The translations under genes were made by a program, and so were the position numbers. Positions 561 to 61,703 of a stretch of DNA of 64,000 nt are shown piece after piece. The number at the start of each line of letters is the position of its first letter. Within the stretch, counting starts at the first letter, position 1. The stretch lies in assembly GCA_000004985.1 (NCBI GenBank), contig GG738869.1; one strand, given 5' to 3'. A model generated the notes under the pieces. That model did not search any database. It saw only the letters and a list, made by a program, of their open reading frames with translations, and had not been told where the DNA came from. Source of the stretch: Naegleria gruberi (Eukaryota).

Positions 561-2804
561 ATGCCAAACATCATCTTTCTTCTTTTGAGTATCTTTGCGT
601 GCATAAACATCTTTTCATTAAGTCTCATACTTGCACAATCAACCCCACAACAATTAAAACAACACACTCTCATAAACATTAAACAGTCAATCATCAAGCA
701 GCAACTTCAACAACTCTCAAGTATCACCATAATTTCAGCATTAAATCATTTAACAGTCGTTTCCTTCTCACCCAAGCTCAAACTTTCATCTCCGAAGGAT
801 TTACATGACAAACGAATAGTTATCATTAATCCAATCTCTTCCACAACAGATATCTATGATGAGGAATCTGATTTGTTAGTGAGAGGATTGTCGCTCACTG
901 AAACAATTTTTAAAAGTCAATTGGAAATGTTTAACAAACAATTGACAAATGAATCACAGATAATTATACCTCGTAGTATTAAATCTTATGATTTGGTGTT
1001 TTATGATTGTGTATTTGGGAATCCACTCGAATTATTTGATGTTTTTGTAATGAGTTCTGAAGATTTTCTTGGAAGTTTTGTGTTAGGAGTTCCAAAGATG
1101 ATAGAAACTAATGGTCTATATGAATGGAATGATTTTTCCTTCCTCAAAGAGTTTCAAGTGCCTATTTCAGTTTCGGTTTATTATAATGAAACTGTATTGG
1201 ATGAAACTAGTGTGAAAAATCAATTAGATACTGTTTATTTGGGACTAAATCAGTTATATTTCAATAGAACAAGTAATTATGAATTGTACAGAAATTTAGG
1301 ATACATGTTATATGAAACTGGTTATGGAAATGTTTCGAATTATGAAAGAGAATTTATAACATATTATCTTACTCAATATAATGATGTACCATTGAAGAAA
1401 AAGAAGCCCACTTTACAATTTTATCCCTTCTCAAGCAGAAAGTACACTCAAGAATACGAAACTCTATCTCAACAATATTACAATCAGTCAACTTCAAAAA
1501 TGACAATCAATTCAATGTATTGTTATGAAAAGTATAATGACGCATACACAGTTTGCTCGAGTAACAATAGAACAGCTAATATTGTATACGATACCATTAA
1601 TTTAGTAACCATTGTCATTGGAATTCTATTCTATGTTGCTCTATTAAGTGTTTGTAACACTAAATCAATCAAAAGAAGATTGACGGCTCCATATATTCTT
1701 CCATTATTGACAATTGCTTGTAATATTGCCTTTTCTTCATATTCTAATACATGCAGATCAGTTAAGAGTGCTTTTATTGTTTGCTTAATTGCAGCAATTA
1801 TTGGAGTTTACGGATTTTCCTTATTGAGATTCACCTATCTAAGATATTTATATCTGTTCCTTTCCAAAGCTAAGGGTGAAGTCTCAATTAAAATTCACAA
1901 AATTCTAGTTTCTTCCACTTTCGGCATTGTCGGATCATTACTCTTTGGAATGGCCTATGCCATTGTTTGGATGATTGTTTGTGTCCCGTTCATTAATAGC
2001 AGAATTTACTACTCAGATACTCAATACGTATTCAATATCATGTACGTGGTTGTAGTATTGTCAGGCACATTAATTGGAACAATTATCATTCTATTGGATG
2101 CTGCACTCAATTGGAAGAAAATTAAGGATAAGGGTATTTATACATTCTTAACCTTTGAAGATCCATTTGGGTTGAGAATGGATTTGCTCTATTTTTTGGT
2201 GATTATTATTGCAACTGTTTCCATTACAATAATTTCACCATTTCCATTCGAATATCAGGATATAGTGGTTGGACTATTGAAAGCAGTGGCATTTGTGTTT
2301 ACGTACATGTTGGCTGGAGGAACAGCAATTATTATTGAGTGGAAAAGATATATTTCTAAAAAGAGGAATATAGATTCGGATGAAAATAATGAAAGTGTTA
2401 GATTTGAGGCATTGATGAAAGATGAATTGTTCAAGGAACTATTCGAAATGTATTGTTCTAAAGAGTTTTCCTTGGAGAATGCCTTACTGTATGAAGAATT
2501 ACAAAACCTGAAAGAGGCGCATCAACAAGATGATTTAATGCCATTCGATTCGTACAAACGCTTATACGAAACCTATTTTCAATCACTTTCAAAATATGAA
2601 GTCAATCTTCCATCACCAGTTAAGAAACAACTAATATCTCTTTATGAAGCAAAAGAATCCATCAAATTCTCAAAGGTTTATGATCTTGTTAGAACTGAGC
2701 TCTTGTTCAATCTGAATGATACTTTTGAAAGATTGAAAGAAACATCAGAATTTAAAAGATACTCATTCTCCAGAGACGTCCAATTAAAGAATAGTATTGT
2801 TTAG
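561..2804 (+). CDS. Seven-transmembrane receptor-like protein with a C-terminal RGS domain (7TM-RGS)
   Basis: Single 747-aa ORF from ATG 561. It has an N-terminal signal peptide and a large N-glycosylation-rich ectodomain. About 7 hydrophobic helices span aa 340-600. The C-terminal RGS box reads ELFKELFEMYCSKEFSLENALLYEELQNL...YEVNLPSPVKK. Confidence 0.7.
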   Translation: MPNIIFLLLSIFACINIFSLSLILAQSTPQQLKQHTLINIKQSIIKQQLQQLSSITIISALNHLTVVSFSPKLKLSSPKDLHDKRIVIINPISSTTDIYDEESDLLVRGLSLTETIFKSQLEMFNKQLTNESQIIIPRSIKSYDLVFYDCVFGNPLELFDVFVMSSEDFLGSFVLGVPKMIETNGLYEWNDFSFLKEFQVPISVSVYYNETVLDETSVKNQLDTVYLGLNQLYFNRTSNYELYRNLGYMLYETGYGNVSNYEREFITYYLTQYNDVPLKKKKPTLQFYPFSSRKYTQEYETLSQQYYNQSTSKMTINSMYCYEKYNDAYTVCSSNNRTANIVYDTINLVTIVIGILFYVALLSVCNTKSIKRRLTAPYILPLLTIACNIAFSSYSNTCRSVKSAFIVCLIAAIIGVYGFSLLRFTYLRYLYLFLSKAKGEVSIKIHKILVSSTFGIVGSLLFGMAYAIVWMIVCVPFINSRIYYSDTQYVFNIMYVVVVLSGTLIGTIIILLDAALNWKKIKDKGIYTFLTFEDPFGLRMDLLYFLVIIIATVSITIISPFPFEYQDIVVGLLKAVAFVFTYMLAGGTAIIIEWKRYISKKRNIDSDENNESVRFEALMKDELFKELFEMYCSKEFSLENALLYEELQNLKEAHQQDDLMPFDSYKRLYETYFQSLSKYEVNLPSPVKKQLISLYEAKESIKFSKVYDLVRTELLFNLNDTFERLKETSEFKRYSFSRDVQLKNSIV

Positions 2805-4780
2805 ATTCAGTTTTTGGATAATTCTCCTCTTCAACAGCAATACTTTGATGGTATAACTTTCCAATAATTGAAGTTGATCTTATTTTACCTCCCATATAGT
2901 CAGGTCTCTCATTATATTCATGTATCCAATCTGGAAGCGCTACTAGTTGACCATTCTTACTTGATTCCATAACAACATCTGACAAGGCAGCCAATTCTTT
3001 TGCTCGAGGACTGTCTGCACCTTCCTGTTCACATACAACAACCCATGTATTGCAAATTATTCCAATCTTTCCGTGTAAATATTAAGGAATTATACTAAAC
3101 ACATTCACAACTTACATTACTACTCATTCTAAACTCAAAAACATTAGCACTAGTCCACCAATAGTTTTTCAAGAGATGATGGGAAAAGTTGGAAAGTGCA
3201 GTGTTGACACATTTCTTAAGATCAAATTGTTTAAGTGTATGGCCAAACTCATTAGCTTTACTCCACCAACTTTGAATATATTGTGCTTGTGGAATAATTT
3301 CAGTATTCCAAGAGGTAAAAAACCTATCACCATCTTTGAATTGCAAGTTAGAAATTGAAAATAAATGAAAGTTACCTAACTCACCTGGAATGTTGTGTTG
3401 CTGACAATCGGCAGCGAAAATAATAACACTTCCTTTTAAATCAACTTCATGTCCAAACCATTTCTGATAGTAATCTGGGATGGATACGGTTTCGAATATT
3501 CTTACATCTCGTGGATGAAGTCCAGGATTTCTGAAAACAATAACTTTTTTCCCACCTGGAACCATACGCCCATTCTTTGTAATGACAATAACTTGGTTAT
3601 CTTTCAATTGTTTAGTTTCGTCCAAAATTCCTTTAGCAATAACTGAATCTTTCATAAAAAACTTTGTTTTTTCCTTAGCATTCTTGATTCTTGCCCTAAA
3701 TTCTTCATCATTTCGACACTTATTTCTAGCAAGGGCTTTTTTTTGTGCATTAAGAAACACTTCATCCTTAACTTGCAATGAACTTAACAAAATAATTATT
3801 TGTCTATTAATATTTGCCGTGTCTGATTCATTCAATCCTTCAACAATTTCCAATTTGTTGAAAAGAGGATTCCCCTCAAATTTCTTCATGCTCTCTCTCA
3901 GAATGATTTGATTGCCATTCATGATCTTGTCTGGACATACTGTCAACATTCCCTTAAATCCAAGAAATCTAATCTGGAAAGCACGAGGAATGTGAACATA
4001 TTTTCCATCAATGCTTTGATCTCTCAAACTACAGCAAACTGCCTTGGCAAATGAGTAACTAATCATACCAATACCATCTGACACAATTCCTTTTCCATCT
4101 CTTGAATTAATGTCATCAATTACTATATATTTGTGAACACGAATTGTTTCTTTGGTGGAAGTGAAATTAAGACACTGTCTTGCAATTTTGGTTTCAATTT
4201 CAGAGGCATAGATCCCAAAGATGTCCATCATTTTCATTGGATCCTCTTCACATGTAAAGTAAACTCCCCTCTCTGAAAGTAAACTTGAAGAAGCACCAAT
4301 TGGCTTGAACATTTGTCCATATAAACAAAAGCCTTTCAGTGTTGTTTGCATTACTGTGGAATCTCTTTCATCTTCAAAGTCAACTCGGATGAATTTATCA
4401 ATTCCATAATATCTAAATACCTTGTTATAATCAATCTCGGCAAATTCAAATGATTTTAAATTGGTTGATTTCACTCTTCTTATCAATTCGGTTTGTTTTA
4501 CAGCGCTTTCATCAAATTTAAATAAAGTATGACACTTCTTCTCTGTAACCACATGTCTATAAAGTTGCTGTGAGAAGTGATACAAACATTGAGTCAGTTC
4601 TTCCTTTGCATTAACAAATTGTTCTGTCTGTTCCTTGAACCATTTACAAAATGGTGCATCTCTATGTTTTTGCAAGTAATGTAACAATAAGCTCCTTTGA
4701 TTATCGATTGTAATGCAACAATGATCGTTTAACCAACCCCATGCCTGTGACCACATTTTTTTGATATTCATTTGTTGCAT
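2752..4780 (-). CDS. RNA-dependent RNA polymerase (cellular RdRP/RDR family) paralog, truncated and with an altered catalytic motif
   Basis: Two exons (4780..3116, 3066..2752) with a GTAAGT donor and a 49-nt intron. Motifs present are SDGIGMIS, RNPGLHPRDVRIFE and FKDGDRFFTSWNTEIIP (canonical DLDGDxYFvxWD), then the AKELAALSD...KNG..LP..YPDYM..K..S.IIGKLY region. Only about 230 aa precede the SDG motif. The 3' end overlaps the convergent 7TM-RGS gene. Confidence 0.65.
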
Positions 4781-5132: not shown

Positions 5133-5867
5133 ATGAGTTTTCACTTTCTTGATTGGTCGCAATGGGATCAAACAGCAACCGTTGAAATGATCAAAACAGC
5201 AGCTAGTCAAGCTTTGAATATGGGTCCTCCGAATCCAATGTTATGTGCACCATTGTCTGTGAGTGATTTTTCATTCGGAAGTGTAACTCCAAAATTTTCC
5301 ATAGAAAAGTTACCCAAACTATCACTCACTCAACAAGAAATACATTTACGATTTTTCTATCAAGGAGATGGTTATATTAAATTAAAAACCAGAGCACAAA
5401 TTAACAAATTAGTTCCGAATAATCAAAGTTATTATGGATACAGTCTAGGAATTGGTAATCAAATGGTTGGACAATATCCAGTTGAAATGCCTTTGGAAAT
5501 TACAATTAAAGATTTAAAATTGGACGGTTTATTAATTATTAAAACAGATACATCAGCAATTGAACATACAAATATAAAGGATTTAATTAATTTATCTAAA
5601 CATAAAGAGGACTCGGATCAAGTTAAAGATAATTTATTGAGCAAGGAACCATCAAGGGAATGCGCAGTTTTTGTTCAATTAATGAATAATCCTCTTGAAT
5701 GTATTGATGTTTATAGTACTTTTGAAGAGGCCATTCCACAATCAAAATCAATATTTGTTAATATGATTAGAGGAGAGGCAGAACAAGGTATTTCAGAACT
5801 CATGAAAGAGCCTAAAAGAATACCACTCAATCTCAATGAGCTAGCCATTGGTAAATCAAAAAAGTAA
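5133..5867 (+). CDS. mdm12: Mdm12-like SMP-domain protein (ERMES complex subunit)
   Basis: N-terminus MSFHFLDWSQW...VSDFSFGSVTPKFSIEKL matches the Mdm12 signature MSFxINW...LDFDLG..PP.I.I. The 244-aa size fits, and it sits in an AAAATG start context. Confidence 0.55.
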   Translation: MSFHFLDWSQWDQTATVEMIKTAASQALNMGPPNPMLCAPLSVSDFSFGSVTPKFSIEKLPKLSLTQQEIHLRFFYQGDGYIKLKTRAQINKLVPNNQSYYGYSLGIGNQMVGQYPVEMPLEITIKDLKLDGLLIIKTDTSAIEHTNIKDLINLSKHKEDSDQVKDNLLSKEPSRECAVFVQLMNNPLECIDVYSTFEEAIPQSKSIFVNMIRGEAEQGISELMKEPKRIPLNLNELAIGKSKK

Positions 5868-6078: not shown

Positions 6079-7610
6079 ATGAAACCATCATCATTTCCTC
6101 TTCTAATTAAATTATTTTCAAAACACAATCATCATCGTCATGGTGTGAATGTTCTAGGTGTTTTATTAATAGCTATTTTATTATTTAGTGTAGATAATGT
6201 ATTTGGAATTTATTCAAGTAAGATTTTTACGATACAACCAGGTGCTGAATATAATGTTGTGGATTTAGAAGGATCAGGTTTTGGATTTTCAACAGGAGGA
6301 TTGGCCAAGTTTAATTTTACAACTAAACAAGTATGTTTTGATAGGATTTCGATTTTTAATTTGTAATAGTCGGCCGATTCTGCAAATCTTGTTTTTGTAA
6401 TGCTTCCCTATAAATTCTGGGCAGTATTACACTCGGCAAAGTGGGATAGTGATCCTTCATATGCTCAATATATGTGTGATATTCCTTCTAAATTGGTAAG
6501 TTTCAGTTGACTGAAATATTATTCTAATCAGAGTAGAGAATTCCAATCACATCTTCAAGTATTGATGCTGTAGTTTCTTATTCTGATAATGAATTGGTTG
6601 CATTGGATGATTACTCTTATTCAATTTCAAAATCCATTACTATTGATACATCTTCCCACTACTCTCTTCTCTTGTTGAAATGTGAACCTTCTGCACCAAG
6701 TGCAGCATTATCTATAAGAGTAGATATGGAACTTATTAATCCTAATGGACAACATTTGAGTACTCAAAAGCACCCTTACATTTTGATCTATTTCACTTTG
6801 ATGATTGCTAATGGAGCATTGTTGACCTATTTATTATTCTTCTTCTTGAAAAACAAAAGACATATTTTCCGTCTTCAAATTGTAATTGGAGTAGCAATCA
6901 TTTTGCAAATTATCAGTCATGCCTCTGTATTTACCTATTTCGAATATATTAATATTGAAGGAAAAATGTCTGATGCTCTGGATATTACATTATCTGTAAT
7001 AAGTGTGTTTGGAGATACAGGATTTTTACTCATGTTATTAGCTATTTCAATTGGATATTCTATTATGGAAGATTCCCTCAATCCAAAGGCAAAATTTTTG
7101 TTCATTTCCTGCTTTGTTGTTTATTTAGGTACAAGAATTATGTATGCATTTTGTAAGGACTCCTCTATTTGCTCTATTTTCCTTTTGGTATTCAGAGTGG
7201 TTAAATTTGTAATCACTTTTGCAATTATCATAGCTATGGTAAGTTGAATGAAACCAAAATTACTAAAACATTTCAGAATCAAACAATAGATAGACTTAGA
7301 ATACAAGCTGCAGAACAACAGTTCAGTAACGATAACCAAAGTGAAGTGTTCATCAAGATGAAGAAGTACAAGTAAGTTATTTTGTATCTTTCAACAAAAT
7401 TAACATTGTTAAAGAGCATTCAGATTGGCATTCCTTCTTTACTTGATGGCTCCTGTAATTTCCCTCTTTGTACAATATACTATTTTAACATGGGTTAATT
7501 TTTGGGTGTTGTCCATGATTGAAGAGCTATTGGTATTTTACATGAACTATTTTGTAGTTACCAACTTTTATCCACAAGCTTTCGATGTATCAAGACCACA
7601 TCAAGATTAA
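6079..7610 (+). CDS. GPR107/GPR108/TMEM87-like (Lung_7-TM_R family) membrane protein
   Basis: Five exons (6079..6330, 6370..6495, 6537..7238, 7277..7371, 7415..7610). Donors are GTATGT/GTAAGT and introns are 38-43 nt. It has a signal peptide, a luminal domain and a 7-TM block (LLTYLLFFFL...FVITFAIIIAMV). Confidence 0.55.
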
Positions 7611-8764
7611 TTTTTACTACCATTATTAAATTTGTTAATAAAGCTCTTCATTGTTGCCATTGATGTTGAAATAAAGTCAAGATCATCACAGTCGCGCATG
7701 AATTGTTCTGCTACCTCTCTAAACTCTTCCTTAATACTTTTAAGATGAACGTGATATGTTTCGTATGATTTTTCACACTGGTCATAAATTAAAAGTAGCT
7801 CAGGAACACCAAGCCTAGATTCCTGTACGAAACTAAACTGATCTCCAGAAGAAAACATGGTTGCTGTAATTCTATAAGTATCCATAAGCCCTCTAAATTG
7901 TATATTTTTGAACTCATGAGAGAATGTTCCATTAATATAGAATGAAACGCTCCTTCCTAACATATCTACAACTATTGAAATTATATCCCCCTCAAAGAAA
8001 AAACCGCATGTAGCTTCTGAATACCTTTCTTGAACATTGGGGAAATAATGTCTTGCCCTTCCATTGCTCGAACATCCGGCATTGTAAGGGTTAAATCCAA
8101 CAAACTTTCGTTCCAACAGTAAGAAACTTTTTTCGGCTATTCCTAGTCCTACATTAGTTTTGGAAGGTTTACAATCCAATCTGATATGAAAGCACTTTAC
8201 AGTCTGAGAGTTAATTTCATATGTGGATGAGCAACTTGTATTTTTTGTAATTCCCAAATACTTAACAGTTTGGCAAGCATTGCTGCTCCCCTCGATCTGT
8301 TGTGAGTTTGTTTCCTGAGCATCAGTACTATTATTATATAATCTAAAATCTACATCTATGGTTGGTGAATAGTTTGGAGTGTTATCCCATTGATTATAAT
8401 TATTTGTAAATATTGACATAAATCTCATCCATTTGTGTTTTCTCGTTTGTAATGATTTTTTAAGATCATTGAAAAGTGGCTTTAGCCATGCAGCCTGTTT
8501 GACACAAAAAGTTTCCCACAGAACTCCTTCACAATCATCACATATCACTCTATAAAATTTCTTATTAATTAATAATCCTTTTTCAACTAGACTTTTCAAA
8601 TCCAAAAATTGTAAAATACTAGTAATCATATGTTTAGGAATGTACCACGTTTCAAAGAAATAAATATCATCCTCCTCCTCTAAATCATCCTTCTTTGATT
8701 TCCGATTGTCTGAATAGGGATGATATCTATTCTGTGGCTCCTTGTTCAATTGTTCTTTTCCCAT
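7607..8764 (-). CDS. F-box / SPRY (B30.2) domain protein
   Basis: ATG at 8764. F-box-like ITSILQFLDLKSLVEKGLL near the N-terminus. SPRY-like GFFFEGDIISIVVDMLGRSVSFYINGTF near the C-terminus. Confidence 0.55.
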   Translation of the reverse strand: MGKEQLNKEPQNRYHPYSDNRKSKKDDLEEEDDIYFFETWYIPKHMITSILQFLDLKSLVEKGLLINKKFYRVICDDCEGVLWETFCVKQAAWLKPLFNDLKKSLQTRKHKWMRFMSIFTNNYNQWDNTPNYSPTIDVDFRLYNNSTDAQETNSQQIEGSSNACQTVKYLGITKNTSCSSTYEINSQTVKCFHIRLDCKPSKTNVGLGIAEKSFLLLERKFVGFNPYNAGCSSNGRARHYFPNVQERYSEATCGFFFEGDIISIVVDMLGRSVSFYINGTFSHEFKNIQFRGLMDTYRITATMFSSGDQFSFVQESRLGVPELLLIYDQCEKSYETYHVHLKSIKEEFREVAEQFMRDCDDLDFISTSMATMKSFINKFNNGSKN

Positions 8765-24602: not shown

Positions 24603-24676
24603 TACCGACAATGGGGCTCGAACCCACGACCCCAGGATTAGAAGTCCTGTGCTCTATCCAACTGAGCTATGACGGC
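24603..24676 (-). tRNA. tRNA-Arg (anticodon UCU)
   Basis: Minus-strand sequence GCCGTCATAGCTCAGTTGGATAGAGCACAGGACTTCTAATCCTGGGGTCGTGGGTTCGAGCCCCATTGTCGGTA folds as a cloverleaf. The anticodon loop is CTTCTAA. CCA is not encoded and a T-run follows on the minus strand. Confidence 0.8.
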
Positions 24677-24986
24677 TTACATTAGCTATGAAATTTGTCT
24701 TCACATCACACTTTGAAATTCTTATGTAATGTACAAGTATTAGTCCCTCACAATAAATCTTCTATTTTAATGACATAAGGGTGACCTTGAATCTTTTGGG
24801 GCTGCAATTAATTTTGTGCTTCCACTCTTAGCTTTTTTAGCTTTAAAATAAGCTTACCAAAATAATGGGAAATCTACACATTCTTAACATGCCAACTTGA
24901 AAAAAGGCAAACTCACCAAACATTGTACAAAAGTCCGTGTTAGTTTTGGTAAATGTATATTAAGACACGTGTTAAATAGAATGTCA

Positions 24987-25060
24987 GCAGCGATAGATCA
25001 GTTGGTTAGATCGTAAGCCTAACACGCTTAAGGTCGCGGGTTCAAGCCCCGCTCGCTGTA
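24987..25060 (+). tRNA. tRNA-Val (anticodon AAC)
   Basis: GCAGCGATAGATCAGTTGGTTAGATCGTAAGCCTAACACGCTTAAGGTCGCGGGTTCAAGCCCCGCTCGCTGTA, with anticodon loop CCTAACA. The GCCTTTTGTT T-run follows immediately (Pol III terminator). Confidence 0.85.
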
Positions 25061-57276: not shown

Positions 57277-58956
57277 ATGGGTTCAACGATTTCACAAAGT
57301 GAAAGTAATGTTGCTTCTTTTTTTGCGGAAGATGATATTGTTGGTGATGATGGATCCATCTATAATCACCAACAATATTCAACAAAAAACAATTCAGCCA
57401 CCACTTCTAATTCTACTAATTCTAATTCTAATAATTCTAATGTTTCTAATAATAATACTATTAATAATAATATATATTGTGTTGGATGTAGTGATGGAGG
57501 TAAAACTTCATTTCACAATCAATTAAAATCCAAATTTCACATGAAAATTCACAAGAATGAAAAAATCAGAGCTACACTCATCATTAAAACTTGTCTATCA
57601 TCAATTCAAGATATAATTTTCATTGTCATGTCAGATCAAGAAAGAAATGATTTTATTCATAAAATTAAAAAATCAGATCCACAAATTTATGATTTTTTAC
57701 TCAACTTGACAAATATTACAAGAAAATGGGAATTTACAAAATCAGAATCAATTCAATATGGACAATATATTAGAATGATATGGTCTAAATATAAAATAAT
57801 ACAAGAATTATATTATCTATATAAGGATTCTCATCATTTAATTGATAATATTGATGTGTTGTGTAATGAAATGAATATTATTATTTCACAATTATCAGAT
57901 CATCAGAAAAATCAATTTTTAAAAAATACTAAACGACGATTAAATCAACGTTTAAATTCTACCACTGAAATTGTAACAAGTAATTCTTTAAATTGTAATC
58001 AATTGGAAAATAATTTATATGATCAAGATGATGAAGAAGATGGAGAAGAACAGCAACAACAAGATGCTGAAGATTTATATCAATTAGATAATCATATTAA
58101 TAATATTATGAATTCAAAAAAAAAGTCAAAAAAAATTTCAATATTTTCATCTAAATTTAAATCTAATTTTAATTCATCTCAACAAAATAATAATAATACA
58201 TCTCTAAATAATGAAAATAATAATGAAAATAATAATACTAGTCATTATGATAAATATTCACCACTTATTAAATTTTTAACAATTGGTAAAAATGAAACAA
58301 AATTTCAATTTGATTCTAAAAATTTATTTACAATTTTAGATTTAGGTGGAAGAGGAGCAGAAAAAAAGAAATGGGAATTCTTTTTAAATGAAACTAATGC
58401 TGATTTTGTTTTATTTTTTGTCAGCATGTCTGAATTTAATCAAAATTTAATTGAATCTGATAATATAAATAGATTACATGAAAGTTTAACTATATATAGA
58501 GATATTATTAATAGAGCTTTATTAAGAAATACTAAAGATATTATTTTAATATTTACTAAACCTGATATATTTTTACATAAAATGGAAAATAATATTGAAT
58601 TTAAATTACCAAATATAGAAGGATTAAATATTCCTAAAATGGAAACTATTAGACCTGAATTATTAAAATTAAAAGATAATATTAAATTAGAAATTAATAA
58701 TTTAATTAATTTATTTGAAAATATTCATTTAAATTCATTTAATAATATAACATTTAAATATCATATTGTAAATATAATAAATATTAAAGAATGTCAAGAA
58801 TTTATTGAAATTTTATTAAGACAAACAATTGTAAAAGATTATATTGAAAATTCATTACATAAATTGACAAGTATAAATTATTCTCCTTTTATATCAAAAT
58901 GTTTATTTAAGGAAAGTAAATTTGAAATTCAAAGATTTTTATTTTTCAGATTGTAA
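57277..58956 (+). CDS. Divergent heterotrimeric G-protein alpha-like subunit (catalytic Gln replaced)
   Basis: MGSTIS (Gly2, myristoylation-type). P-loop CVGCSDGGKTS (GxxxxGKT/S). Switch II LDLGGRGAEKKKW versus canonical DVGGQRSERKKW. FVLFFVSMSEFNQ...NRLHESLTIYRDII...IILIFTKPDIF matches G-alpha C-terminal motifs. A long N-rich insertion is present. Confidence 0.6.
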   Translation: MGSTISQSESNVASFFAEDDIVGDDGSIYNHQQYSTKNNSATTSNSTNSNSNNSNVSNNNTINNNIYCVGCSDGGKTSFHNQLKSKFHMKIHKNEKIRATLIIKTCLSSIQDIIFIVMSDQERNDFIHKIKKSDPQIYDFLLNLTNITRKWEFTKSESIQYGQYIRMIWSKYKIIQELYYLYKDSHHLIDNIDVLCNEMNIIISQLSDHQKNQFLKNTKRRLNQRLNSTTEIVTSNSLNCNQLENNLYDQDDEEDGEEQQQQDAEDLYQLDNHINNIMNSKKKSKKISIFSSKFKSNFNSSQQNNNNTSLNNENNNENNNTSHYDKYSPLIKFLTIGKNETKFQFDSKNLFTILDLGGRGAEKKKWEFFLNETNADFVLFFVSMSEFNQNLIESDNINRLHESLTIYRDIINRALLRNTKDIILIFTKPDIFLHKMENNIEFKLPNIEGLNIPKMETIRPELLKLKDNIKLEINNLINLFENIHLNSFNNITFKYHIVNIINIKECQEFIEILLRQTIVKDYIENSLHKLTSINYSPFISKCLFKESKFEIQRFLFFRL

Positions 58957-59241
58957 TTTTATTTGTTTACAGTAATAAATTATTTAAATAATATTATAAA
59001 ATATTCAATTACTATTCTTCTCCAATCAGCTGTATTCACTAACTTATTTACATAAAACGAATAGGTAGCATAGATCTTACTCAGAGATCTTATCCTCTAA
59101 ACTAGATTCGAACTATTACAAGTATAATATTACAAATATATCAGTTTCTTCATAATTATCTTTTGATTTTTGTAATTGTTAAATTAGAAGCTAATTAGAT
59201 CTCTAACAAAGGCTAAAAAAAAACTTCTTCAAATAAAAAAA

Positions 59242-61703
59242 ATGTCTTCAACCGATAATCACCAACAACAACAACAATTATTAAAATTTGAACTTGTTCA
59301 ATCACTTGTTGATCATGAATTTTGGTACGATCTGGAAAATAAAAAGTTATTAGAATACAAATTAGATAACAAGCCTAAACAAATTCAAGCCTCCTATAAT
59401 ACTGGTAAATTATTTAATTCTCAAGTATTAAATGCTACTCATCATACTAATGATCAAGTAAATCTTAGTTCCAAGTTGAGATTGGGTGAAAATGCTTTTG
59501 ATCATCATCATTTAAATACTTCCAATACTATTAATACTATTAATACTACTATTAACAATAATAATAATTTATATTATTCAAATGGTACATTATATAATGC
59601 TAATACTATTGAAGAATTTAATAATTATGATAAAAAGAGTATTTTAAGAAATGTTGGATTAGAAACAATTTATAACAAAATTGTTAATCAAGAATGGTTA
59701 AAAAATCCAAATGAATTAACTCACTTTTTATTATTAACATTTGCAGATTTAAAACAACATGCTTTCCATTATTGGTTTGCATTTCCATCTTTATCTTTAT
59801 CTGATATGGAAATTAAATATGAAAAATCAGAATTATTAAATGAAGAAATTCAATTAAAATTACAAAATGAATTATTAACATTTAAATCTAATCATTCTAA
59901 AGAAGAACATGGATTTTATTTAATTATTGAAAATGAAAATTCTTATCAAATTAAATCACTTTCTGAATTTGAAAATGTTATAAATGGAAATGAAAAGTAT
60001 TATTTAGGATTTTCAGATCCATCTGCATTGAATGAATATCCATCAATGATTTTAAGAAATTATTTATTAGCAAGTTATTTAACATTTAAAAAAGATTTAT
60101 TTAATGTTATTGCTTTTAGACAAGATCAAAGTTTATTATTAAAAAATGTTAAAATTACAACAAGTATTGAAAATATTGAAAATATTCAAGAATTAAAAGA
60201 TAAAATTTCAGTTATTGGATGGGAAAAGAATACTAAAAATAAATTAGGACCTAGATTTACAAATATGGGAAGTACAATGGATCCAATTAAATTAGCAGAA
60301 AGTTCAGTAACATTAAATTTACAATTAATGAAATGGAGAATGTTTCCAACACTTAATTTAGATAAATTAGGTAAAACTAAATGTTTATTAATTGGAAGTG
60401 GAACACTTGGATGTCATGTTGCAAGAAATTTAATGGCGTGGGGAATATTTAATATAACATTTGTTGATAGAACACGTGTTAGTTTTAGTAATCCAGTTAG
60501 ACAACCATTATATGAATATGAAGATTGTTTAAATGGTGGTAAAGATAAAGCATCATGTGCTGCTGAACATTTACGTAGAATTTATCCAAATGTTAATGTT
60601 CAATCACATAGTTTAGATATTCCAATGCCAGGTCATTTCATTACAGATCGTCAAAAAACTTTAGAATCCTATAAGAAATTACATGACCTCATTGAAGAAC
60701 ATGATGTTATTTATTTATTAACTGATACAAGAGAATCAAGATGGTTACCTTCGTTAATTGGTATTAGAAAAAAAAAGATTATTATTAATGCTGCTTTAGG
60801 TTTTGAATCTTATCTTGTTATGAGATATGGTGTTTATGGTGATAATAGCAATGATAACAACAATAATGATAGTACTAATGAAAACAATGATGAATTTAAA
60901 GAAATGACATCAAAGAGATTGGGTTGTTATTTCTGTAATGATGTTGTTGCTCCTGTTAATGTAAGTAAGAATAATATGACAATTTCATGTGTGATAATGA
61001 ACTATATATTGAACTAACTATATATTGAAATATTTTATAGAGTACAAAGGATAGAACACTTGATCAACAATGTACTGTAACAAGACCAGGAGTTAGTGCC
61101 ATTGCAGGATCCTTAGCAGTTGAATTACTTGTTTCATTGACACATCATCCAGAATATAAATATGCTTCTGCATATAATCCAACAAGTCAAAATAATGATG
61201 GACATGTTGAGTCAGATTTAGGAGTTGTTCCTCATCAAATTCGTGGATCAATTTCAAATTATCAAACCAATTTATTATATGGTTCAAGTTATAATCAATG
61301 TACTTGTTGTTCTCCAATTGTTTTGCAAAATTATGCAAAGGATGATTTTAATTTCTTGGAACGTTGTTTTAATGATTCTAAATATTTGGAAGAATTAACT
61401 GGTTTAAAACAATTACATGAACAAACTTTGAAATTATTGCAAGATTTTGATTATTCAAGTGAAGAAGAAGAGGATGATGAAAATATTAATGAAAAATCGT
61501 CAACAACAAAGGAGCAACAAGCCTCCACAATTACTACCACAGAAAAGAAGGAAGAAGCATTGACAGAAATGAGTAAAGAAGCACTTATTGAAAAGATTAA
61601 ACAACTTGAAAAGGAGAATCAACAATTGAAAAAGACTCACCCACCTTCCAAGGCTACTGCTACAGATGAAGAGGATGATTTGGATGGATTTGAGGTTCTT
61701 TAA
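59242..61703 (+). CDS. atg7: Autophagy E1-like enzyme ATG7
   Basis: Two exons (59242..60960, 61041..61703) with an 80-nt intron. LIGSGTLGCHVARNLMAWGIFNITFVDRTRVSFSNPVRQPLYEYEDCLNGGKDKA and STKDRTLDQQCTVTRPGVSAIAGSLAVELLVS align to ATG7. N-rich inserts are present. Confidence 0.85.

Follow-up and report, generated by a model that had tools for sequence, protein, structure and literature searches.

A compact RNA-dependent RNA polymerase paralog of Naegleria gruberi with a probable unannotated intron in its catalytic loop and no first catalytic aspartate in any gene model tested

Introduction

Does a gene for an RNA-dependent RNA polymerase (RdRP) whose catalytic motif departs from the canonical form encode a broken enzyme, or has the gene itself been misread? 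This question is raised by NaegRDR7 (NAEGRDRAFT_67889) of Naegleria gruberi, which lies on the minus strand of a 64,000-nucleotide stretch of contig GG738869.1 (assembly GCA_000004985.1), here called the window. A first-pass annotation had described the gene as a truncated RDR/QDE-1-type paralog in which DLDGD was changed to FKDGD and the N-terminal half of the RdRP domain was missing, and had taken its product to be catalytically dead or regulatory, or else a pseudogenising fragment. The reading that we favour, at a probability of roughly 55% and on the grounds of sequence comparison and a predicted structure, is that NaegRDR7 is an intact, selected and compact paralog that has been mis-modelled and whose product is catalytically weakened or non-catalytic.

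Identity and extent of the gene

2752..4780, minus strand: whole coding region of NaegRDR7 / NAEGRDRAFT_67889, from the ATG at 4780 to the stop codon at 2754..2752, placed by the list of open reading frames (ORFs), the sequence and its translations, and identity to XP_002677050.1

The sole close database match of NaegRDR7 was a 553-residue 'predicted protein [Naegleria gruberi]' (XP_002677050.1 / EFC44306.1 / NAEGRDRAFT_67889 / UniProt D2VG84), which carries the UniRef name 'RNA-dependent RNA polymerase'. This public model is exactly the unspliced, intronless ORF begun at the third ATG; from the ATG at 4780, the minus-strand ORF runs through 561 codons to a stop at 3095. In Bollmann et al. (2016), a supplementary list of ten RDR genes of N. 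gruberi includes NAEGRDRAFT_67889 as NaegRDR7 in its 553-residue form, and in the trimmed alignment of that study the motif region of NaegRDR7 reads ...IPGELGNFHLDGDRFF..., a motif on which the main text is silent (PMC4791657). The gene is thus already present in databases and in one comparative study, where neither the oddity of its active site nor the errors of its gene model are described; new here are the corrected gene model and the recognition of the degenerate catalytic loop.

According to our analysis, the public model appears to be wrong in two places: a C-terminal exon was omitted, and a probable intron in the catalytic loop was read through. The coding exons and the intron near the C-terminus are as follows.

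3376..4780, minus strand: exon 1, the helical N-terminus and the greater part of the RdRP core, ending in ...NIPGEL(G); the exon would end at 3385 if the GTGAGT donor were used
3116..3333, minus strand: exon 2, (D)GDRFFTSWNTEIIP followed by a lineage-specific segment of low confidence at residues ~500-540 (predicted local distance difference test, pLDDT, of 48-59 at residues 501-540)
3067..3115, minus strand: 49-nt intron, GTAAGT...GGAAAG, absent from the public model, which continues to the stop at 3095
2752..3066, minus strand: exon 3, C-terminal part of the RdRP domain with IGIICNTW, ELAALSDVVMESSKNG and PDYMGGKIRSTSIIGKLY (2904..2851)

After removal of the introns, the coding sequence is 1,938 nt long and has no stop other than the terminal one, and the revised protein has 645 residues if a 42-nt intron is taken out of the loop or 642 residues if 51 nt are taken out. 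Two open frames, one of 564 and one of 104 codons, are connected when the 49-nt intron (3115..3067) is removed. Exon 3 brings back five conserved C-terminal motifs (GxIxNxW, LAxL, KxG, PDYM and IIGKLY), it was aligned to residues 877-962 of RDR2 as the third stretch in a HMMER search against the PDB, and it raised the Pfam PF05183 score from 206.1 bits for the annotated protein to 248.4 bits, a gain of 42 bits. The 49-nt intron and the C-terminal exon are part of the gene, and the splice junction 3116/3066 of the first-pass annotation holds.

In exon 1, 233 residues precede the SDG motif, close to the approximately 230 counted before. The motif SDGIGMIS occupies residues 234-241 (4081..4058, with SDGIG at 4081..4067), AFQIRFLGFKG lies at 3982..3950, and RNPGLHPRDV forms residues 417-426 (3532..3503, which includes RNPGLHPRD), followed by ...SNLQFKDGDRFFTSWNTEII. 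Together with the post-catalytic PDYM..K...IIGKLY region in exon 3, these motifs were found in the translated models where the first-pass annotation had placed them.

Domain coverage and predicted fold

All models of NaegRDR7 matched PF05183 significantly (E = 2e-73 to 4e-75). The 645-residue model scored 254.2 bits (E = 3.6e-75, two stretches) against a cut-off of 23.8 bits, and the best relatives by sequence in the PDB were maize and Arabidopsis RDR2 (E = 1e-26 to 1e-21). Assignment to the RDR/QDE-1 type is thereby confirmed. The match begins with residue 118 of the protein, which is aligned to position 16 of the 582 in the profile; its best stretch aligns residues 118-353 with profile positions 16-274 and, together with the RDR2 alignments from the PDB, supports exon 1. 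Residues ELIRRVKST...NKVFRYYGIDKFIRVDFEDE correspond to the usual start of the RdRP domain (R-V-x-TP...NRVxRxY...FxRVxFxDE). The claim that the N-terminal half of the domain is missing therefore does not stand, and additional upstream exons that could restore it have no room, as a spacer of 352 bp separates the ATG at 4780 from a divergent plus-strand ORF that starts at 5133.

A structure was predicted with AlphaFold2 from a 70-sequence alignment, with a mean pLDDT of 79.8, a predicted template modelling score (pTM) of 0.79 and a pLDDT of 89-95 over the catalytic loop; an alignment of four sequences had given an unusable model (pLDDT 33.8). The top Foldseek matches of the predicted structure were maize RDR2, Arabidopsis RDR2 and Neurospora QDE-1 (E = 3e-32 to 2e-23; template modelling score relative to the query, TMq, 0.57-0.68), with individual values of E = 2.9e-32 and TMq 0.67 for maize RDR2 and E = 4.6e-27 and TMq 0.61 for QDE-1. 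These alignments extend over ~640-780 columns and span the whole query, whereas the score relative to the target (TMt 0.39-0.47) reflects that under half of each large enzyme is covered. At a much lower level, the model also matched the single-chain RNA polymerases of phages, 8f72 (P32 gp64) and 8f5m (P74 gp62), proteins of ~590 residues (E ~ 1e-6, TMq 0.37-0.40). The two phage polymerases are about equal in size to the compact NaegRDR7.

PF05183 was the sole family found in NaegRDR7, while plant and fungal matches additionally carry PF26252, PF24823, PF26250 or PF26253. A helicase family was sought by Pfam in all three models of the protein and none was found, in agreement with the first-pass annotation. 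RdRPs of the Dictyostelium RrpA type are fused to a helicase; this module is an accessory in only some relatives, such as the Willaertia homologue described below, and does not define the family. Compared with its two closest relatives, NaegRDR7 lacks ~50 residues of the central part of the domain, and its C-terminus lies ~30 residues past IIGKLY, so that the region following GKLY in canonical RdRPs is missing. As judged from sequence and predicted structure, NaegRDR7 is a compact protein of ~645 residues that is essentially a cellular RdRP core, with a domain that is not truncated at its N-terminal end. It is among the shortest members with a full domain in the search.

A probable intron in the catalytic loop

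The second departure from the public model concerns the segment directly ahead of the DGD codons.

3334..3384, minus strand: probable unannotated, in-frame and stop-free intron, with donor GTGAGT at 3384 (51 nt) or GTAACT at 3375 (42 nt) and acceptor AG at 3335..3334
3326..3385, minus strand: catalytic-loop codons; with 42-nt splicing G466-E467-L468-D469-G470-D471, with GAG (E) at 3382..3380 and the DGD codons ending at 3326

The letters of the candidate are CAG/GTGAGTTAG/GTAACTTTCATTTATTTTCAATTTCTAACTTGCAATTCAAAG/AT, where slashes mark the possible boundaries, and include a branch-like TTCTAAC motif. Without splicing, the segment is translated into 'GNFHLFSISNLQFK' and the motif FKDGD; the 14-17 codons ahead of DGD are intron-like. 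As 42 and 51 nt are both multiples of three and stop-free, a gene caller would have read through the segment. Confident, frame-breaking introns of the window are 39-54 nt long and T-rich, have a GC content of 0.13-0.29 and carry TTCTAAT-like branch motifs; length and signals of the candidate fit this description, and no other stretch of the NaegRDR7 coding sequence is richer in T (top 2% of windows). When both strands were scanned with a strict intron pattern, all matches were true introns joining ORFs except the candidate itself, although the pattern is not rare in random AT-rich sequence (~5.6 occurrences per shuffled window).

The strongest argument for an intron at this site is a comparative one. 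An insertion between SG[GS] and DxDGD was present in 0 of ~140 homologous catalytic motifs, taken from the best 150 relatives among the 1,508 matches of an exhaustive HMMER search. The spacing from 'IIF' to 'DGD' is 13 residues in NaegRDR3, the nearest paralog, and likewise 13 in the 42-nt model, compared with 10 in the 51-nt model and 27 in the unspliced form. Removal of 42 nt gives ...IIFAADCQQHNIPGELDGDRFFTSWN, where NaegRDR3 has ...IIFPTQGYTSIKICDFDGDRVFVCWD. With exon 3 included, PF05183 scored 254.2 bits for the 42-nt model, 248.4 bits for the unspliced and 246.0 bits for the 51-nt model, and a purpose-built hidden Markov model of 89 homologues ranked the three in the same order (324.9, 318.1 and 313.8 bits).

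Splice signals and protein homology point to different donors: the former favour removal of 51 nt (IPDGD), the latter removal of 42 nt (GELDGD). At ~15 loci of the window with an obligatory short intron, a donor with G at +5 was available (GTAAGT, GTTAGT, GTATGT or GTAGGT), although the choice of donor at these loci was partly steered by likeness to the consensus. We consider an intron in the catalytic loop quite probable on these sequence comparisons and lean slightly to the 42-nt form; this second intron with its donor is the most likely interpretation of the segment.

The first catalytic aspartate

GGDLDGD in RDR2 and CDFDGD in NaegRDR3 are the homologous counterparts of the NaegRDR7 loop, as found in HMMER alignments to 7w82 and 7eu0, in a three-way alignment and in an alignment with 89 homologues. 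In the D-x-D-G-D motif, NaegRDR7 retains the second and third aspartates, while the first position is occupied by F in the unspliced form (FKDGD), by E after removal of 42 nt (ELDGD) and by P/I after removal of 51 nt (IPDGD). Thus, no gene model tested has Asp at the first of the three metal-binding positions. The corresponding position holds Asp in the ~140 homologous motifs, Gly in one and Glu in none.

Alternative GT/AG pairs around the loop, enumerated by eye, did not recover D-x-DGD; GATT/GT...AG/AT, for example, gives ADYGD. A sequencing error had been proposed as a possible source of FKDGD. A single error cannot turn FKDGD into DxDGD since TTC would need at least two changes, but GAG (Glu) of the 42-nt model is one transversion away from Asp. 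The mature loop probably reads GELDGD, or IPDGD where splicing takes the stronger GTGAGT donor, and FKDGD has probably arisen from misannotation. Of the original claim, the loss of the first Asp is kept in every model, and the FKDGD motif is confined to the unspliced conceptual translation, with F and K most likely intronic.

Sequence divergence and selection

NaegRDR7 was aligned with 89 homologues, and columns conserved in at least 85% of the sequences were compared. It matched 50 of these 70 columns, the lowest value among the 90 sequences (median 67; NaegRDR3 55; Willaertia protein 60). Most of this shortfall lies around the active site: within the catalytic-loop region it matched 10 of 18 columns (median 18), and none of the other sequences has as many as its eight changes there. 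Among the substitutions are HPGD to HPRD, G459C, R461Q, G465P, D467E, D554E and AVD to VME. The motifs SDGIG, AFQIR-G-KG, RESM-KF, NRQ and DE are intact.

In the exhaustive HMMER search, no relative of NaegRDR7 was found between 99% and 36% identity. The frame of 645 codons is unbroken in a genome of 33% GC despite an identity of only ~36% between the protein and its nearest relative, which suggests long-term selection for a translated product. Frameshifts, in-frame stops and loss of most motifs, as expected of a pseudogene, were not seen: the only stop is terminal and the 50 conserved columns are kept. Decay of NaegRDR7 is very unlikely, and its description as a pseudogenising fragment does not agree with these data.

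Closest relatives

NaegRDR7 has in common with QDE-1, RDR2 and PF05183 the motifs SDGIG, AFQIR-G-KG, RESM-KF, NRQ, DE, NP-LHP-D, L-DGD, P-DYM and IIGKLY. With 645 residues it is about half as long as canonical cellular RdRPs (~1,000-1,400 residues), and unlike these it has no RNA-recognition motif, helicase or post-GKLY region and is changed at 20 of the 70 near-invariant positions. Its closest relatives are NaegRDR3 (NAEGRDRAFT_67961, XP_002676801.1; E = 7e-52) and a helicase-RdRP of Willaertia magna (KAL9645322.1; E = 2e-47), with 34-36% identity. The three proteins share lineage features, namely DGD-R, 'NxW' for 'NAH', EGA and the LRESMxKF(E/N)G context. In contrast to NaegRDR7, both relatives carry long C-terminal extensions (NaegRDR3 has 1,650 and the Willaertia protein 2,397 residues) and retain D-[FL]-DGD and the AVD motif; the Willaertia protein additionally has an N-terminal DEAD/Helicase_C module that NaegRDR7 lacks.

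The C-terminal extensions of these two relatives span ~800 residues (NaegRDR3 ~830-1650, Willaertia magna ~1560-2397), and each contains 'hGS...(11-14 aa)...SDxD', which looks nucleotidyltransferase-like by eye. In a Pfam scan at a laxer threshold, which covered the Willaertia extension alone, a nucleotidyltransferase had no support (E > 0.1). If the Willaertia extension were a nucleotidyltransferase, the protein would resemble a helicase-RdRP-nucleotidyltransferase (RDRC-like) fusion.

Neighbouring features

Other features of the window are listed here with their coordinates.

561-2804, plus strand: ORF of 747 residues whose C-terminal part holds an RGS domain (Pfam PF00615, E = 9.5e-8, residues 615-710)
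5133-5867, plus strand: ORF of 244 residues with no Pfam match, divergent from NaegRDR7 over a 352-bp spacer
7607-8764, minus strand: ORF for a SPRY-domain protein of 385 residues (Pfam E = 2e-6)
24603-25060: divergent tRNA pair 310 bp apart, minus-strand tRNA-Arg(TCT) and plus-strand tRNA-Val(AAC), both genes confirmed with ARAGORN as well as Rfam

The 3' end of NaegRDR7 (stop at 2754..2752) overlaps the 3' end of the convergent ORF 561..2804 by 53 bp (2752-2804), and the same bases would end both coding sequences, one on each strand. By eye, the upstream part of this ORF has an N-terminal signal-like segment and several hydrophobic stretches, and the product looks like a seven-transmembrane RGS protein. 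Furthermore, the GC content drops to 0.198 at 58001-60000 compared with ~0.32 elsewhere in the window, and the last 10 kb are generally more AT-rich.

Discussion

Several observations weigh against a spliced, catalytically weakened NaegRDR7. The donor that fits the protein best, GTAACT, has C at +5, unlike the G at +5 of the ~15 short-intron loci, and the donor with the good consensus, GTGAGT, yields a loop that agrees less well with the family than the unspliced form does. By codon usage the segment scores low, at the 12th-14th percentile of coding windows, and still lies within the coding range (log-likelihood ratio +4.2). Metagenome contigs were scanned with the NaegRDR7 protein and with a DNA pattern of the spliced junction, and no match was found. 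NaegRDR3, like other N. gruberi RDRs, is divergent as well, so that divergence alone is no proof of a loss of activity. Finally, glutamate is able to coordinate Mg2+, and for this reason NaegRDR7 may be active.

One alternative is that the annotated protein is correct as it stands, with no intron in the loop, the 14-residue insertion directly ahead of DGD and a disrupted, catalytically dead FKDGD loop. The segment is open, its codon usage falls in the lower coding range, both the public model and Bollmann et al. use the unspliced form, and this form outscores the 51-nt spliced one on both profiles. However, an insertion of this kind has no counterpart in the homologous motifs, and the segment combines a CAG/GTGAGT donor, a branch-like motif and an AG acceptor with the local intron length and the highest T content of the coding sequence. 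Removal of 42 nt, moreover, brings the loop to the length seen in the nearest paralog and improves the score on both profiles. We regard the unspliced protein as an unlikely product, if one to be kept in mind.

Hardly more can be said for the possibility, doubtful as judged from the sequence, that NaegRDR7 is a fully active minimal RdRP, in which 42-nt splicing yields an E-L-D-G-D loop with Glu replacing Asp at the catalytic metal. The exchange of Asp for Glu is conservative and one nucleotide away from GAT/GAC, the remaining core motifs from SDGIG to DE are intact, and the predicted fold is confident over the loop. The second and third aspartates are kept, of which the third has proved essential in other RdRPs (PMC2896523, PMC4791657). 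On the other hand, Glu at the first position has no precedent in the homologous motifs, the loop region is the most strongly changed of all sequences compared, and the required donor is atypical. With regard to the first-pass annotation, the absence of the first Asp makes NaegRDR7 a non-canonical and possibly inactive enzyme; a Glu-Asp-Asp triad may nonetheless work.

A decaying pseudogene or duplication fragment of the expanded N. gruberi RDR family, for which one might cite the lowest conservation score, the internal deletion of ~50 residues, the missing accessory domains and an orthologue found neither by homologue nor by exhaustive HMMER searches, is highly improbable: a 1.9-kb frame at 36% identity to the nearest paralog is free of stops and frameshifts after removal of short introns that are themselves well formed, its survival by chance in DNA of 33% GC is negligible, most core motifs are intact, and the predicted fold is complete and confident.

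We therefore return to NaegRDR7 as an intact, compact paralog with a weakened or lost activity. It is an extra, specialised copy, since N. gruberi also possesses paralogs with DLDGD, DYDGD or DFDGD loops. That the gene is expressed, and what the altered loop means for its function, we infer. The protein would fold as a template-binding RdRP core, its polymerase activity would be weak or lost, and it might act in a small-RNA pathway, either as a specialised enzyme of low activity or as a non-catalytic partner of the canonical paralogs, in line with the proposal made for the divergent Rdr3 of Paramecium. It is conceivable, if rather improbable, that the choice of splice site gives rise to three NaegRDR7 proteins that differ only at the metal-binding loop, carrying GELDGD, IPDGD, or the 14-residue insertion and FKDGD. 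If true, this three-way splicing would switch an RNAi polymerase between a possibly active form, with a Glu-Asp-Asp triad, and inactive ones.

The nearest precedent is Rdr3 of Paramecium tetraurelia, which, in spite of a highly divergent catalytic domain and an altered motif, is needed for transgene-induced and endogenous small interfering RNAs (Marker et al., 2010; PMC2896523). Rdr3 and Rdr4 of Paramecium are, like NaegRDR7, extra paralogs beside canonical ones, with many conserved catalytic residues gone and DLDGD altered (PMC2896523). The alterations differ: Rdr3 has three aspartates at a different spacing and Rdr4 a gap of seven residues (PMC2896523), whereas in NaegRDR7 the L-DGD register is kept and only the first acidic residue is changed. 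The Paramecium and Naegleria proteins belong to different lineages and diverged independently.

For work that relies on public data, the consequence is direct. The record XP_002677050.1 / D2VG84 lacks ~100 C-terminal residues of the RdRP domain and probably contains intron-derived residues inside the catalytic motif, and comparative studies of RdRPs based on it, such as that of Bollmann et al. (2016) with the 553-residue form, inherit these errors. For the family as a whole, NaegRDR7 would be a heterolobosean addition to the RdRP paralogs that keep the fold with a partial loss of the catalytic triad, next to Rdr3 and Rdr4 of Paramecium. While it opens no new question by itself, it is a useful candidate for probing non-canonical roles of RdRPs.

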